DNA of 64,000 nt from Candidatus Latescibacterota bacterium (lineage in GTDB: Bacteria > Latescibacterota > UBA2968 > UBA8231), in the NCBI GenBank assembly GCA_965243025.1, contig CBDETY010000003.1:4960001-5024000 (forward strand), written 5' to 3'. Position 1 is the stretch's first letter; the number at the start of each line of letters is the position of its first letter. Position numbers and translations under genes: made by a program. Positions 50,007-54,940 of the stretch are shown here, piece by piece. The notes under the pieces were generated by a model that saw only the letters and a program-made list of their open reading frames with translations, did not search any database and was not told where the DNA came from.

Positions 50007-51650
50007 TCACCTGAACTCGAGGTCGACTCCCTCCGCCGTTTGTCCTCTGCGAACCGCTACCATTTCGGCTGAGATCGAGACCGCTTCAGCTGGCGTGAAG
50101 GGATGGGGAGTGCCGGCATCCGCTACGAGATTGCCGTTCAGGTCTGCAAACGCCATCACCGAGTACTTCCCGGGAAGCACCTTCCCGAGGGAAAATGCTC
50201 CGCTGCTGTCGCAACCGGCGATGTAGGTGCGTCCATCCGGAACACCTCTGGCCAGCACCATCACCTCGCCCAGGTCGAGGAGGGAGTCCGCGGTGACCGT
50301 CCCGGAGAGCGACGGCAGCTCCGAATCCGGCGCCACCTCGAAGTCGAACTCGGCCAGGCTGTCCGCCGGGGCGTGTCCGGCGCGGTCGCTCAGCTGTCCC
50401 AGTCGGCCGCGCAGGGAGTAATGTCCCGGTCTCAGGGGTTCCCGCGGAATCAGCACCAGCCGTGTCGGAGTCTCCCATGTCCAGGTACCGTCTACCAAGG
50501 CGGTCGAATCGGTTTCGATCCAGAAATCGCCTGCAGGAGTATCCGTGGCCATCCCTTCGTCGAACTCGATGGCCAGTGAGTCGCCTGGGGCCCCCACTTT
50601 CGAGGGGCTTGCCGAGACGACGGATGGAGCCTTCTTGTCCTTCCGGGTGCTGGCGCGCCACGGCTGATCCCAGGACACCGGCTGTTTCTCGATGACGAGC
50701 TTGGCGAAACGGTAACTTGCCTCTGCCTGCTGTGGACCGGTCAGGACGTACAGCCGGGTTCGGTCACGCGCCGAGGAGTAGAATGCCGAAACCTCGAGCC
50801 CATCGATTTCAATCAGGGCGTCCAGGGGGTCTACCTCGCGATCGAAGGCCAGGAGAAGCCGGTTTTCGTCGAGTGCCTGCACCCGCTTCAGCCGGGGGGA
50901 AGGCAATTCTCCCTGGGACAGCAGCAGATCTCCTGCATGGACGTCTTCGCTCTGCGAGAGGTCGTGGATGCCTGCCGGCAGGGCAATGGGTTCTCCGGCG
51001 TCCCTGCGCGAATTGCGGTTTTCATCGCGGAAGGCGGTCACGAGGAAGCGTCCGGCCGAAAGGCGCATGAATTCGTACGAGCCGTCTCGCGATGATTGCG
51101 TCTCGTAATCCGGGGGATCGCTGCCCACGCGGCCGTCGAAGTGGCGGACGTCGTACGCCCACACGCGGGCTTTGGCTGCAGGTCTGTACCCCTCGTAGAC
51201 GCGGCCGCGAAGGCGCCCCTGGTTGAGTTCGGGCCCGGTGGCGAAGGCGAAGGTGTACGCTTCCGGCAGCGAGTTGCCGCGCCGGTCGCGTGCGTCCGTT
51301 CCGACAGTTACCACGTAAGTCTGCTCCTCCAGAAGGCGGCTGGCGGAGACTTCGAGGGTGGGTCCTTTCCAACGGAATTGCAGCTCGACCCGCGGAGCGA
51401 GAAAAATCGCCTCCTCCGTTCGCCTGCGGTCCATTCCCTCGCTGAAACGGAGGAAAATGGAGCTCTCCGGGGCAACCTCCGTTTCGTCGGCCTTCGGAGT
51501 ATGGCTGACGATGTCCGGGGCGGCCCGGTCGATCTCCCCCCCGGGGGGCCTTCCGACCTTGGCGCAATGTGCCGCAGCTACGGCGACAGTGACCAGGAGC
51601 GGCAACAGCGGATGGCGGCGAGGTTGTCGGTCCGCGAAAAAGGGCGGCAT
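50007..51650 (-). CDS. Lipoprotein with Ig-like (Big_5) domains
   Basis: Lipoprotein-type Cys in CAKVGRPPGG..D..AP, repeated I.FSE/FDE, D.RGN.L...YTFAFATG and AF.D.N.N motifs. Confidence 0.8.
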   Translation of the reverse strand: MPPFFADRQPRRHPLLPLLVTVAVAAAHCAKVGRPPGGEIDRAAPDIVSHTPKADETEVAPESSIFLRFSEGMDRRRTEEAIFLAPRVELQFRWKGPTLEVSASRLLEEQTYVVTVGTDARDRRGNSLPEAYTFAFATGPELNQGRLRGRVYEGYRPAAKARVWAYDVRHFDGRVGSDPPDYETQSSRDGSYEFMRLSAGRFLVTAFRDENRNSRRDAGEPIALPAGIHDLSQSEDVHAGDLLLSQGELPSPRLKRVQALDENRLLLAFDREVDPLDALIEIDGLEVSAFYSSARDRTRLYVLTGPQQAEASYRFAKLVIEKQPVSWDQPWRASTRKDKKAPSVVSASPSKVGAPGDSLAIEFDEGMATDTPAGDFWIETDSTALVDGTWTWETPTRLVLIPREPLRPGHYSLRGRLGQLSDRAGHAPADSLAEFDFEVAPDSELPSLSGTVTADSLLDLGEVMVLARGVPDGRTYIAGCDSSGAFSLGKVLPGKYSVMAFADLNGNLVADAGTPHPFTPAEAVSISAEMVAVRRGQTAEGVDLEFR

Positions 51651-51677
51651 ACGGGGCCGTTCGCCGGCAGCGGTCGG

Positions 51678-52673
51678 TCAGTGATCTCGCGGGTGACTGC
51701 CCGCGTATGTTTTCCGCAGGCCCTGCAGGACCTCTTGATCGTCAGCAGAGGGGTGGGCCGACGCAGGGGCCGCCTGTCCCAGCATTTCGGCGACGGCGCC
51801 GGCGTCGGCACCCGCCCCGAGCATGTGGTCGGCGCAGGCAGTTCGCAGTGCCCGGGGGCCGCCCCCGTTCACCGGGCTGAGCAGGCGTTCGACGATGCGC
51901 TGAACAGTCCTGCGGTGGAGTCGTTTACCCGAGGTGTTGAGAAAGAGCGCGCCCGCGTCGATATCGGCGATCTCCTTGTCGACCAGGAGGTCGGCCCGAA
52001 AAAGCAGGTAGTCCCCGACCGCGGCTGTGGCACGCGAACCGATCGGCACGAGCCTCGGCGCTTCCGGGGCCCCGACTTTCACCATCCCCGATTCGATCTC
52101 CAGAGAGGTCAGATTCAGGGCTACAAGTTCCCGGAGCCGCAGCCCTCCTCCGTAAAGGATTTCGACGATGGCGCGGTTGCGAACCGCGGCGAAGCTGTCC
52201 GCGGGGTTTTTTTCGATCGCCTCGGCCACGGCCTCCTTTCCGAGGCCGCCCCCTGCAGGTTGCGGTGAAGCATCGACTCTCAAACCGGCTGCAGGGTCGT
52301 CACCGCGAACGCCGCAACGGCGCAGGAAGCGGAACAGCGATTTCAACGCGGAGAGCTTTCGCTGTGCGGTTGCAGGTTTGAGTTTCCGCACCTGTTCGCC
52401 GAGGAACTCCGCTACCAGTTTGCGCCCGATGGAACCGAGCGATGCGTCCGCAGTGCGCGGATGAACGAAGAGGGTGAACTGGTTCAGGTCGGAGCGGTAA
52501 GCGGAAACGGTCGAATCGGGGCGCCCGCTCTTCCGAAGGTATTCGATAAAGTGGGCGACGCCGTCTTCGAGGGGCGCAGAGGGATTCGGTGGGTCTGCGA
52601 GCTGTGCTGTCGAATCGGGTGGCCGCCAGCTCTCCCCGGGATCAGGCGCGAGGCCCCGGCAGGTGCTGTTCAA
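51678..52673 (-). CDS. xerC: XerC-like tyrosine recombinase homolog with degenerate catalytic residues
   Basis: T..AY..DL.QF, AT..RKLSALKSLFRFL, RNRAIVEILYG.GLR..EL and a C-terminal Y..SHPR, directly downstream of topA with a TTGA start/stop overlap. Catalytic K, H-II, H-III and Y are missing. Confidence 0.8.
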   Translation of the reverse strand: MNSTCRGLAPDPGESWRPPDSTAQLADPPNPSAPLEDGVAHFIEYLRKSGRPDSTVSAYRSDLNQFTLFVHPRTADASLGSIGRKLVAEFLGEQVRKLKPATAQRKLSALKSLFRFLRRCGVRGDDPAAGLRVDASPQPAGGGLGKEAVAEAIEKNPADSFAAVRNRAIVEILYGGGLRLRELVALNLTSLEIESGMVKVGAPEAPRLVPIGSRATAAVGDYLLFRADLLVDKEIADIDAGALFLNTSGKRLHRRTVQRIVERLLSPVNGGGPRALRTACADHMLGAGADAGAVAEMLGQAAPASAHPSADDQEVLQGLRKTYAGSHPRDH

Positions 52674-54940
52674 GCGGCGGGAGTGTTTTCGAACCGGTTT
52701 TCGCACACGCGGCAGAGCAGCATCGGCGCTCCCTTCCGGCTGTTCTTTTCGTACAGAAGCGGCGCCTCGCAGTGAGGACAGGGGCCTTCCACCGGCTTGT
52801 CCCAACTGGCGAACCTGCAATCAGGGTACTGGTTGCAGCTGTAGAACACCTTCCCCTTCCGGGATTGCTTTTCCACCAGTTCACCGCTACAGTCCTGTTC
52901 CGGGCAGGAAATCCCGAGCGAGTAAGGTTTGACGTTTCGACAATCGGGGTATCCGCTGCAGGCGAGAAAGCGTCCGTACAGTCCCGTCTTGACGACCATC
53001 GGGGAGCTGCAGATCTCGCACTTTTCGTCGGTCCGCGCCTGCTCACGATCCTGTTCGAGAGGCTTGGTGTTCTTGCATTGCGGGTAACCCGGGCATGCGA
53101 GAAAACGGCCGTTCCTGCCCCATTTGACCACCATGTTGCGATGGCAGTCCTCGCAGACTATGTCGGTCTCTTCCTGGAGCGACCGCTTGAGCTCGCGTCG
53201 GCGCGAGTTCGCGTCCTTCAGGGAGTCGCTCCAGGATCCGTAGAACTGGCGCACCGTCTCCACCCAGTTTTCCTTGCCGTCCTCGATGCGGTCGAGCTCG
53301 TCTTCCATTCTGGCGGTGAAGCGGACGTCGAAGATGTTGGGAAAGGTCTCGATAAGGAGCTTGTTGACCGTTTGTCCGCGCTCGGTGCCCACGAAGTAGC
53401 GATCCTGCTTTTCCACGTATTCCCGGTCCTGCAGGGTACTGATGATCTGCGCGTAGGTGCTGGGCCTGCCGATACCTTTCGCCTCGAGCTCTTTTACGAG
53501 GGAGGCCTCTGAGTACCTCGGGGGGGGCTTGGTGAAATGCTGTTCCGGCTTCAGGGTCTGGGGGTCAAGAGGTTGTCCCGCGGCGAGATCGGGGGGCAGC
53601 TGGGTCCTCTCCCCTTCACCATCGTCTTCTTTGCTTTCGGTGTACAGCACCGAGAACCCGGGGAATTTCGTCCGCGACCCGGTGGTTCGCAGCAGGTATT
53701 CGGAAGCGGAAATGTCGACACTGGTAATATCGAGAACCTGGGATCCCATCTGCGACGCGACGAAGCGTTTCCAGATGAGTTCGTAGAGCTTGGCCTGGTC
53801 CGGGTTCAACCTGTTTTTCATTTCACCGGGAAGCAGCTCCAGGTACGTAGGTCGGATCGCCTCGTGAGCGTCCTGTGCTCCACGCCGGGTCTTGTAGGCA
53901 TTTGGTTTGGGGGGAAGGTAACTTTCTCCGTACGTCTTGCCGATATGTTCGCGGACCTCGGCGATGGCGTCGTCCGAGACTCGCACCGAATCGGTCCGCA
54001 TGTAGGTGATCAAACCACGAGTCTCCCCCTGCACCTCGATTCCTTCGTAGAGCTGTTGTGCCACGGCCATCGTGCGTTTGACGGTAAAGCGCAGTCGCCG
54101 CGCGGCGTCTTGCTGCAAGGTGCTGGTGATGAAAGGGGGTGAGGGGTGCCGCCGTTGTTCTTTCCGCTTTACCTGCTTGACCACGAAATCCGCCTTGCGC
54201 AAGTCGGCAACGATGGCTTCTGCCTGCTCCTGGTTCGATATGGCGAGTTTCTCGTTTCGGTGCTGCAGCAACCGCGCGGTAAATGCAGGGTATTCGCTGT
54301 CTCCATCCGGGCCGCCGGAAGCTGTGAGGGACTCCATTCTCTGTTTGAGCAGGGCATCGATCGTCCAGTATTCCTGCGGCTCGAAAGCGTCGATTTCAGC
54401 ATCTCGCTCGCAGATCAATCGCAGAGCAACCGACTGCACCCGCCCGGCCGACAGGCCCGCGTGTATGACCTTCCACAACAAGGGACTGATTTCGTATCCC
54501 ACCAGGCGGTCCAGAACGCGGCGCGCCTGCTGTGCGTTGACTTTTCTGAGGTCGAGTTTACCCGACTTGGCGATGGATTCGCGAACCGCCTTGGGAGTGA
54601 TTTCGTTGAACAGAATACGTTTGACCTGGCGGTCTTCCTTGTTGCCGATTGCATGGGCGACGTGCCAGGCTATAGCCTCACCTTCGCGGTCGGGATCGGT
54701 TGCGAGGTAGATCTCGTCCGCTTTCCGGGCCTCCTTGCGCAGGTCGGCGAGGATCTTTCCCTTTCCCCGGATGGTGACGTACCGTGGATTGAAATCGTTG
54801 TCGACGTCGACGCCCAATTCCTTTGGGGGCAGGTCGCGCACATGTCCCATGCAGGACTTGACCAGATAGTCCTTGCCGAGAATCTTGTTGATCGTGGTGG
54901 CTTTTGCCGGTGATTCAACTACAACGAGGGACTTTGCCAT
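52670..54940 (-). CDS. topA: DNA topoisomerase I
   Basis: Motifs VVESPAKA, ATDPDREGE, SAGRVQS, GLITYMRTDS, QDAHEAIRPT, GIGRPSTY and C-terminal Zn ribbons. Confidence 0.98.
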   Translation of the reverse strand: MAKSLVVVESPAKATTINKILGKDYLVKSCMGHVRDLPPKELGVDVDNDFNPRYVTIRGKGKILADLRKEARKADEIYLATDPDREGEAIAWHVAHAIGNKEDRQVKRILFNEITPKAVRESIAKSGKLDLRKVNAQQARRVLDRLVGYEISPLLWKVIHAGLSAGRVQSVALRLICERDAEIDAFEPQEYWTIDALLKQRMESLTASGGPDGDSEYPAFTARLLQHRNEKLAISNQEQAEAIVADLRKADFVVKQVKRKEQRRHPSPPFITSTLQQDAARRLRFTVKRTMAVAQQLYEGIEVQGETRGLITYMRTDSVRVSDDAIAEVREHIGKTYGESYLPPKPNAYKTRRGAQDAHEAIRPTYLELLPGEMKNRLNPDQAKLYELIWKRFVASQMGSQVLDITSVDISASEYLLRTTGSRTKFPGFSVLYTESKEDDGEGERTQLPPDLAAGQPLDPQTLKPEQHFTKPPPRYSEASLVKELEAKGIGRPSTYAQIISTLQDREYVEKQDRYFVGTERGQTVNKLLIETFPNIFDVRFTARMEDELDRIEDGKENWVETVRQFYGSWSDSLKDANSRRRELKRSLQEETDIVCEDCHRNMVVKWGRNGRFLACPGYPQCKNTKPLEQDREQARTDEKCEICSSPMVVKTGLYGRFLACSGYPDCRNVKPYSLGISCPEQDCSGELVEKQSRKGKVFYSCNQYPDCRFASWDKPVEGPCPHCEAPLLYEKNSRKGAPMLLCRVCENRFENTPAA

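Follow-up and report, generated by a model that had tools for sequence, protein, structure and literature searches.

XerC and XerD are the textbook example of obligate catalytic partners. To our knowledge, the systems that work with a single recombinase (XerS, XerH and XerL) are known solely as finished replacements. The gene considered here, designated xerC', holds the position of xerC next to topA in a stretch of 64,000 nucleotides (the window; G000:C3:4960001-5024000, where G000 is this genome, a 6.8-Mb assembly of a Candidatus Latescibacterota bacterium, and C3 is the contig). Its product has lost the catalytic tyrosine. The gene is retained by purifying selection, with the DNA-binding domain, both phosphate-contacting arginines and the C-terminal docking tail intact. 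Within one bacterial family this loss occurred on at least four separate occasions, and one genus of the family deleted the gene. In addition, an extra intact Xer-like recombinase is present at a fixed locus between mutL and leuS in this family but in none of the three sister families.

It is useful to compare XerC' with the XerC of the XerC/XerD-dif system (TIGR02224; XerD structure, PDB code 1a0p). Both have the two-domain Xer fold, the topA-xerC gene position, the two active-site Arg residues and a Y-x3-HPR tail, and this genome also has a cognate XerD, the gamma domain of FtsK and an asymmetric dif site at the terminus. However, XerC' is without Tyr, Lys, His-I and His-II, it reaches 155 bits against the 335 bits of the XerC cut-off, and in place of the Tyr-bearing helix it has a variable and probably disordered stretch. 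The XerC-YF mutants of V. cholerae (PMC2533119) and P. aeruginosa (XerC-Y272F, PMC9431673) are also forms of XerC unable to cut. They bind, they support Holliday junctions initiated by XerD, and they reveal a second role that is not that of a recombinase (PMC2533119, PMC9431673); binding by XerC' is predicted. The mutants carry a single engineered change; XerC' has lost four residues naturally, and this loss recurs independently and has become fixed in entire genera.

The extra recombinase of the family, termed here the P0068 type, can be compared with the single-recombinase systems XerS/difSL, XerH/difH and XerL/dif of Legionellales (PMC5357621, PMC9765430), which share with it the restriction to one lineage and the complete active site. 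It adjoins a palindromic site with a 6-bp spacer, as XerL is associated with a palindromic dif, and on the Coxiella virulence plasmid a dif-like site is found immediately beside xerL (PMC9765430). Unlike these systems, the P0068 type, a putative recombinase, is found alongside XerC, XerD and a classical dif and does not replace them. In MrpR/YopR of SPbeta the integrase fold is reportedly retained for DNA binding only (PMC10516654); these proteins differ in being phage repressors, with no XerC orthology. Full-text literature searches, supplementary tables aside, turned up no account of a naturally Tyr-less XerC ortholog, and the words 'inactive' and 'pseudogene' are absent from the Xer review PMC5357621.

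The xerC' open reading frame (ORF; 51678-52673, minus strand) is uninterrupted and consists of 331 codons followed by TGA, coding for a protein of 331 residues. The TTG start (52673-52671) overlaps the TGA stop of topA (52672-52670), and there is no further in-frame ATG, GTG or TTG ahead of the codon of V95. The features of the locus, in window coordinates, are the following.

51678..52673, minus strand: xerC', an ortholog of xerC by position, its active site dead (Pfam, NCBIfam and the topA-xerC-lipoprotein synteny).
52670..52673, minus strand: TTGA overlap, shared by the start of xerC' (TTG) and the stop of topA (TGA); database gene calls in close relatives start at the same residue.
52575..52673, minus strand: Pro-rich N-terminal leader of about 33 residues, poorly conserved beyond the genus and modelled as disordered, with a predicted local distance difference test score (pLDDT) below 50 at residues 1-17 and 19-22.
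52317..52553, minus strand: core-binding (SAM-like) domain, residues 41-119 (PF02899), with pLDDT of 87-95; invariant in the genus.
52323-52373, minus strand: motif ATAQRKLSALKSLFRFL, residues 101-117, within the core-binding domain.
51774..52229, minus strand: catalytic-domain fold, residues 149-300 (PF00589); top Foldseek matches XerD 1a0p and XerA 5hxy.
52137..52139, minus strand: Arg-I, R179 in GLRLREL (residues 177-183), kept; Arg-I is retained in 23/25 Tyr-less orthologs.
52053..52073, minus strand: beta-hairpin loop GAPEAPR (residues 201-207) in place of GKGxKER in the 1a0p alignment; the catalytic Lys is gone.
51840..51857, minus strand: PRALRT (residues 273-278) in place of PHxLRH in the 1a0p alignment; His-I is changed to Arg, Arg-II (R277) is kept and the next His is changed to Thr.
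51774..51785, minus strand: MLGQ (residues 297-300) in place of LLGH in the 1a0p alignment; His-II is replaced.
51732..51773, minus strand: degenerate stretch AAPASAHPSADDQE (residues 301-314) where the Tyr-bearing helix is expected; it contains no Tyr, is the least conserved part in the genus and has pLDDT below 50 at residues 302-309.
51681..51713, minus strand: end of the C-terminal helix and tail, KTYAGSHPRDH (residues 321-331), with the Y-x3-HPR common to canonical XerC orthologs.
52670..54940, minus strand: topA (756 residues), directly upstream of xerC'; its orthologs lie upstream of xerC across the family.
50007..51650, minus strand: gene of a 547-residue protein with an N-terminal lipoprotein-type signal, downstream of xerC'; in the conserved gene string it comes third, and it was located by tblastn downstream of xerC in most loci of the family.

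The local DNA contains about 65% G+C, and a spurious ORF of 390 codons runs on the opposite strand at 51096-52268. Since such DNA yields long chance ORFs, the open frame of xerC' alone proves little, and the case for its function rests on the ratio of nonsynonymous to synonymous substitution (dN/dS) and on in-frame conservation as far as the C-terminal HPR.

The protein scores 63.1 bits with PF00589 (threshold 27.1) over residues 149-300 and 47.7 bits with PF02899 (threshold 22.3) over residues 41-119. Its best NCBIfam model is that of XerC, TIGR02224, at 155.2 bits, below the curated cut-off of 335.15. By domain scores and fold XerC' belongs to the tyrosine recombinase / phage integrase superfamily, although it lacks the tyrosine nucleophile. 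The HMMER alignment with the solved chain of E. coli XerD, 1a0p (E = 4e-23), pairs GAPEAPR with GKGNKER, PRALRT with PHVLRH and MLGQ with LLGH, and from the catalytic hexad R-K-H-R-H-Y only the two Arg are left. The AlphaFold2 model, built from an alignment of 22 orthologs, has a mean pLDDT of 82.7, falling below 50 at residues 302-309, and XerD (1a0p) and XerA (5hxy) rank first in a Foldseek search with this model. The initial annotation of the locus, made from the letters alone, had described an uninterrupted ORF overlapping the topA stop (TTGA) in the usual topA-xerC position, and the coordinates and the synteny agree with it. All the motifs that it had listed as kept, the N-terminal signature ATAQRKLSALKSLFRFL, Arg-I in GLRLREL, Arg-II and the Y..SHPR tail, were found, and its reading that four of the six catalytic residues are replaced and the Tyr is absent is borne out by the 1a0p alignment.

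With four catalytic residues lost, namely the nucleophilic Tyr, the Lys and both His, XerC' is firmly predicted to be unable to cleave DNA by tyrosine-recombinase chemistry. In Cre, Tyr and Lys alone are reported to be strictly required for more than 5% of the wild-type activity (PMC2943603). Cleavage by an unconventional route, through another nucleophile or through the Tyr of KTYAG, would have only Ser, Thr and Y323 near the C-terminus to draw on. In the alignment of 22 sequences, Tyr-bearing orthologs among them, the tail residues H327 and P328 do not vary, and Y323 and R329 hardly do. Orthologs with a canonical Tyr of their own conserve Y323 to the same degree, which makes it part of the tail motif rather than a substitute nucleophile. 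With the Lys and both His gone as well, and the former Tyr segment variable and modelled as disordered, such cleavage is extremely improbable.

The dead active site is not an assembly error. Contigs from four sequencing runs in four studies span positions 51600-52900 of the window; two are identical to it and two differ by substitutions only, as strain variants. The sole indel in these contigs, of 1 nucleotide, is located at 51653, in the intergenic DNA, and none falls inside the xerC' ORF. Among the sequencing runs listed for this DNA, none was of RNA. All 13 public-metagenome proteins at least 70% identical to the xerC' product (P0001, P0004-P0015) have the same replaced motifs, and long stretches of XerC' are invariant within the genus. 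A scan of public genome contigs with P0001 gave 592 matching stretches, of which none was confirmed.

The family of this genome in GTDB comprises 76 genomes in 18 genera, of which 70 genomes match XerC' at E <= 1e-30; the best locus of each was taken. The motifs were tabulated for these 70 orthologs and for 7 from sister families, with the partial sequences L033 and L075 included and the XerD matches L084-L086 excluded. In most loci topA lies directly upstream of xerC and the same lipoprotein gene (50007-51650 in the window) downstream, and the Tyr-bearing orthologs of sister genera hold this same place, which makes xerC' a positional ortholog of xerC. The Tyr is absent in 25/70 of the family orthologs, distributed over 11 genera, and the outgroup orthologs are canonical (7/7). 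The Tyr-less state is found in this genus (g1) in 3/3 orthologs, in g18 in 10/10, in g7, g3 and g6 in 2/2 each, in one ortholog each of g2, g8, g12, g15 and g17, and in 1/6 of g16. The catalytic residues are kept as follows.

Arg-I: 23/25 Tyr-less orthologs, 45/45 Tyr-bearing orthologs.
Arg-II: 25/25 Tyr-less, 45/45 Tyr-bearing.
Lys: 2/25 Tyr-less, 38/45 Tyr-bearing.
His-I: 0/25 Tyr-less, 43/45 Tyr-bearing.
His-II: 1/25 Tyr-less, 45/45 Tyr-bearing.

Across the 11 genera the Tyr-less orthologs thus retain both Arg, together with the core-binding domain and the C-terminal HPR tail. No Tyr occurs between the MLGQ position and the C-terminal helix in 25/25 of them, a segment that is variable in both sequence and length. 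The HPR is in frame in 25/25, and no frameshift was seen. In both genomes of g10 (86% and 90% complete; L286, G024:C8, and L287, G011:C6) xerC is cleanly deleted, the lipoprotein gene coming directly after topA, and no XerC ortholog was found in either genome. One genome of g16, G042, has no match to XerC' at 1e-30; in addition to XerD, it carries a second Xer-like gene that is fully canonical (L136, G042:C70:4625-6332).

The initial annotation had asked whether the loss is clade-wide among topA-adjacent orthologs, and it is found to extend through a good part of the family, with at least four losses against canonical sister families. Its suggestion of a repurposed DNA-binding protein co-expressed with TopA is not supported: the link to topA is ordinary conserved synteny, and nothing suggests a function related to TopA.

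Selection on xerC was measured as dN/dS by the NG86 method with bootstrap, and the upper bounds are at most 0.64 for all Tyr-less pairs. The values for Tyr-less XerC are 0.26-0.34 in this genus (g1), 0.13-0.31 in g18, 0.31 in g7 and 0.25 in g3. For Tyr-bearing XerC they are 0.10-0.32 in g13, 0.05-0.07 in g16, 0.11-0.18 in g9 and 0.10-0.20 in a genus of a sister family, and for XerD of this genus 0.20-0.31. The gene does not have the marks of a pseudogene, as it contains no frameshift or stop and its dN/dS is 0.26-0.34. In the initial annotation the pattern had been taken as selective loss of chemistry rather than random decay, with a dN/dS near 1 named as the sign of simple decay; the values obtained, their upper bounds and the retention of the Arg residues and the tail uphold that view.

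Slow neutral decay toward a deletion of the g10 type, with the open frame persisting only through the rarity of stops at high G+C, must be weighed against these results. The deletion in g10, the long chance ORFs that high G+C produces and a dN/dS somewhat above that of most Tyr-bearing genera would fit it. However, the dN/dS of 0.13-0.34 in four Tyr-less genera has upper bounds well below 1, the frame is unbroken in all 25 Tyr-less orthologs, the six-genus clade described below included, and long stretches are invariant in the genus. Decay is therefore very unlikely.

The history of the loss was traced on a tree of topA fragments with 65 rows. A locus was used only if it had an adjacent topA match at 50% identity or more, and two short fragments were excluded. 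The Tyr-less state requires at least four changes on this tree, and starred branches force three of these. A starred clade that covers six genera (g1, g2, g8, g12, g15 and g18) and has 15 rows is wholly Tyr-less. G043 (g16) and the genus g6 are also Tyr-less and lie off the tree, as further cases.

A search of the genome with PF00589 found six places: XerC', the XerD ortholog, three Cre-like paralogs of about 300 residues and one truncated fragment resembling an integron integrase. No second XerC was found by this search. The fragment is a 193-residue ORF (L002, G000:C3:4120651-4120845) that corresponds to the C-terminal third of such a recombinase, with HxLKH, LLGH and IYTH present and the Arg-I region missing. 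The XerD ortholog, P0002 (G000:C3:6500032-6500946), adjoins uvrC and scores 284 bits with the NCBIfam XerD model, against a cut-off of 329.6. The genome also has ftsK with the gamma domain and ruvC, so that the xerD, ftsK and dif that the initial annotation had proposed to look for are all present, the last as one site.

The XerD proteins of the family have their own irregularities. In this genus the hairpin loop (VRVRAGGRPRAVPLG; VRVRAGG(R/N)PRAVPLG) has no Lys at all, and the His-I position carries Ala or Gly. The counts below were read by hand from the motif table of 49 family orthologs (L087-L135).

Tyr kept: 48/49.
Arg-I kept: 47/49.
No Lys anywhere in the hairpin loop: 35/49.
His-I replaced: 23/49.

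The XerD of G009 is the one without Tyr, and those of G016 and G008 have Thr at Arg-I. The XerD proteins of the sister families are fully canonical (7/7).

These observations bear on the model proposed in the initial annotation, in which XerC' would be the architectural or allosteric half of a XerC'-XerD-dif synapse, only XerD, activated by FtsK-gamma, would exchange strands, and RuvC or another process would finish the Holliday junction. The conserved Tyr of XerD, the presence of FtsK-gamma and RuvC, the retained asymmetric arms of dif and the invariant tail of XerC' are consistent with it. When wild-type XerD was combined with XerC-YF in V. cholerae, Holliday junctions were still formed, together with a reduced yield of product that was credited to other junction-resolving processes (PMC2533119). 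However, the XerD of this genus has neither the loop Lys nor His-I, in company with the 35 Lys-less loops of the family and against a canonical outgroup, and that Lys is reported to be strictly required in Cre (PMC2943603). The product yield in V. cholerae without XerC catalysis was 'considerably decreased' (PMC2533119), and the model leaves the conserved third recombinase at dif unexplained. Because XerD is Lys-less here, a dif system in which only XerD cuts is less likely in this genome, and we consider it unlikely.

On contig C3 the cumulative GC skew is lowest at about 4.9 Mb, reaches a plateau at 1.64-1.70 Mb and then falls. At this turning point there is a single dif candidate, GAAAGTCACATAA-ACAACT-TTATGTAAATAAC (G000:C3:1707061-1707093), the sole ATAA-N6-TTATG in the region. 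Neither its left (XerC) arm half site nor its right arm has a second copy in the genome. The pattern ATAA-N6-TTATGTAAAT, with at most one mismatch, is found in 58/76 of the family genomes. The right (XerD) arm is nearly constant in the family, and the left arm follows a loose AAAG(T/C)C-N-(T/C)-ATAA in both Tyr-bearing (g11, g14) and Tyr-less (g1, g3, g18) genera. This similarity of the left arm lends modest support to its continued binding. Relaxed searches recovered dif sites in G016, G089, G091 and G021. The mutL locus of G001 (L139, G001:C11:194377-198294) has the XerD-arm half of dif only, the left arm and the spacer being missing. Genomes of g14 have 3-4 dif-like sites within about 25-45 kb, for example G060:C1:2376906-2400009, G064:C1:687244-713201 and G065:C1:1346128-1372714; these clusters, in genera with canonical XerC, look like arrays of elements integrated at dif.

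The uniqueness of the left arm is also relevant to the possibility that XerC' has left dif and is now a sequence-specific DNA-binding protein elsewhere, for example a regulator. A function of XerC outside recombination has a precedent (PMC9431673), as have repressors with the recombinase fold, reportedly in MrpR/YopR (PMC10516654), and the conserved Arg residues and core-binding domain would suit such a role. However, the XerC-arm half site is found once in the genome, at dif, so that no regulon of such sites is visible. In addition, the partner-docking tail is conserved as in active XerC and the topA synteny is unchanged. A departure from dif is consequently quite unlikely. A predicted complex of the C-terminal domains of XerD (125-305) and XerC' (145-331) gave 0.00 in two runs, which provides no verdict.

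The third recombinase was found by way of the dif-like sites of relatives. The gene of this Xer-like recombinase, the P0068 type, has a fixed place between mutL and leuS, with a palindromic site on one side and the classical dif on the other. The reference locus is G004:C1:399598-400539 (L176/L297), and 29 more were collected (L298-L326). It is present in 52/66 of the family genomes searched, representing 15/18 genera, at a single place except in two fragmented assemblies, and it is absent from the three sister families (0/28, 0/3 and 0/13 genomes; 0/44 in all). All six catalytic residues are invariant in 30/30 sequences. The median identity between genera is 63% for the P0068 type, 50% for XerD and 43% for XerC. 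The palindrome, with the consensus tAtACTAaCGATAA-N6-TTATCGtTAGTaTa, is found upstream of the gene in 25/30 loci, mostly about 100-310 bp before the gene match, with two farther out, and the classical dif is often located 27-60 bp past the stop. Both mutL and leuS flank the gene in 22/30 loci. The P0068 type is below every curated NCBIfam cut-off, with 126 bits for XerC, 120 for XerD and 72 for XerS; it is not XerS, since 72 bits compare with a cut-off of 267 for that model. The PDB chain 9i5v_14, of 401 residues, is named 'Ribosome-associated translation inhibitor RaiA' and has canonical Xer motifs. XerC' and the third recombinase each align with this chain over about 270 residues, and its molecule name does not seem to fit its sequence.

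In this genome the place between mutL and leuS is taken by the gene of a Cre-like recombinase, P0003 (C3:1707168-1708094), with dif 65 bp past its stop. The near-palindrome TTAGTTTTGATAA CGTGAA TTATACAAACTAA lies just upstream of its start; the locus was recorded as G000:C3:1707061-1708143 (L006/L137). The Cre-like gene replaces the P0068 type at this locus in g1 (this genome and G002) and in G019. Its family is found in 15/76 of the family genomes and is multicopy, with 4 matches in this genome, 12 in G001 and 8 in G002. The Cre-like P0003 was considered as the cause of XerC decay throughout the family and rejected, as it occurs in only 15/76 genomes, in several copies, and at the dif locus in g1 and G019 only.

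The arrangement of these genes and sites allows us to propose, with about even chances of being right, that a third recombinase took over the chemistry and that XerC' survives as a non-cutting protein that binds dif. The recombinase linked to dif would perform the strand exchange for chromosome-dimer resolution, in the manner of single-recombinase systems confined to one lineage, such as XerL (PMC9765430). XerC, and in part XerD, would thereby be released from catalytic constraint; an intact recombinase at dif would supply the reason why the chemistry of XerC became dispensable. With XerD as its partner, XerC' would still bind the single dif at the XerC arm, forming a complex that does not cut; a candidate role of this XerC'-XerD-dif complex is to mark dif for FtsK or to stop it there. 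The arrest of FtsK at XerCD-dif is reported to need neither cleavage activity nor synapsis (PMC2800217), and P. aeruginosa XerC has a second function apart from its recombinase activity (PMC9431673).

Several observations weigh against this proposal. The takeover is a correlation with n=1, because it relies on one phyletic coincidence in one family. The conserved P0068 type is absent from this very genus, and the Cre-like gene that stands in its place may be a selfish element, since it is multicopy and patchy (15/76). In g14, g13, g11 and g9 the P0068 type coexists with canonical XerC, so that its presence is permissive at most. The position of the mutL-leuS module at the terminus is established in this genome only, that is, where the Cre-like P0003 sits. 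Matches to dif with at most one mismatch are fewer in some Tyr-less genera (g7 0/2, g6 0/2, g12 0/1, g15 0/1, g18 3/10), and g10 shows that XerC can be dispensed with outright.

A more far-reaching form of the takeover by a third recombinase, which we offer only tentatively and regard as doubtful, is that a transition from XerCD to a single-recombinase system is underway. The third enzyme would carry out all the chemistry, on its own palindrome, while a purely structural complex of XerC' and the Lys-less XerD on dif, at a distance of about 1 kb, would stop or position FtsK. If this is true, the system would show a three-protein division of labour that is undescribed for any Xer system.

The initial annotation dealt with a single gene, and the present comparison goes beyond it in showing a loss that recurs throughout the family, a deletion of xerC in g10 and an additional intact recombinase at dif. 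It should be noted that XerC' and the third recombinase would both be named 'XerC/XerD' or 'tyrosine-type recombinase/integrase' by automatic annotation. One family holds all the stages: canonical XerC, a selected XerC without its nucleophile, the deletion of xerC, XerD with a degenerate loop, and a better conserved recombinase at dif. With cloned genes, two questions become testable in this family: the role of XerC beyond cutting, of which there is a hint in P. aeruginosa, and the way in which a new recombinase for dimer resolution displaces XerCD.

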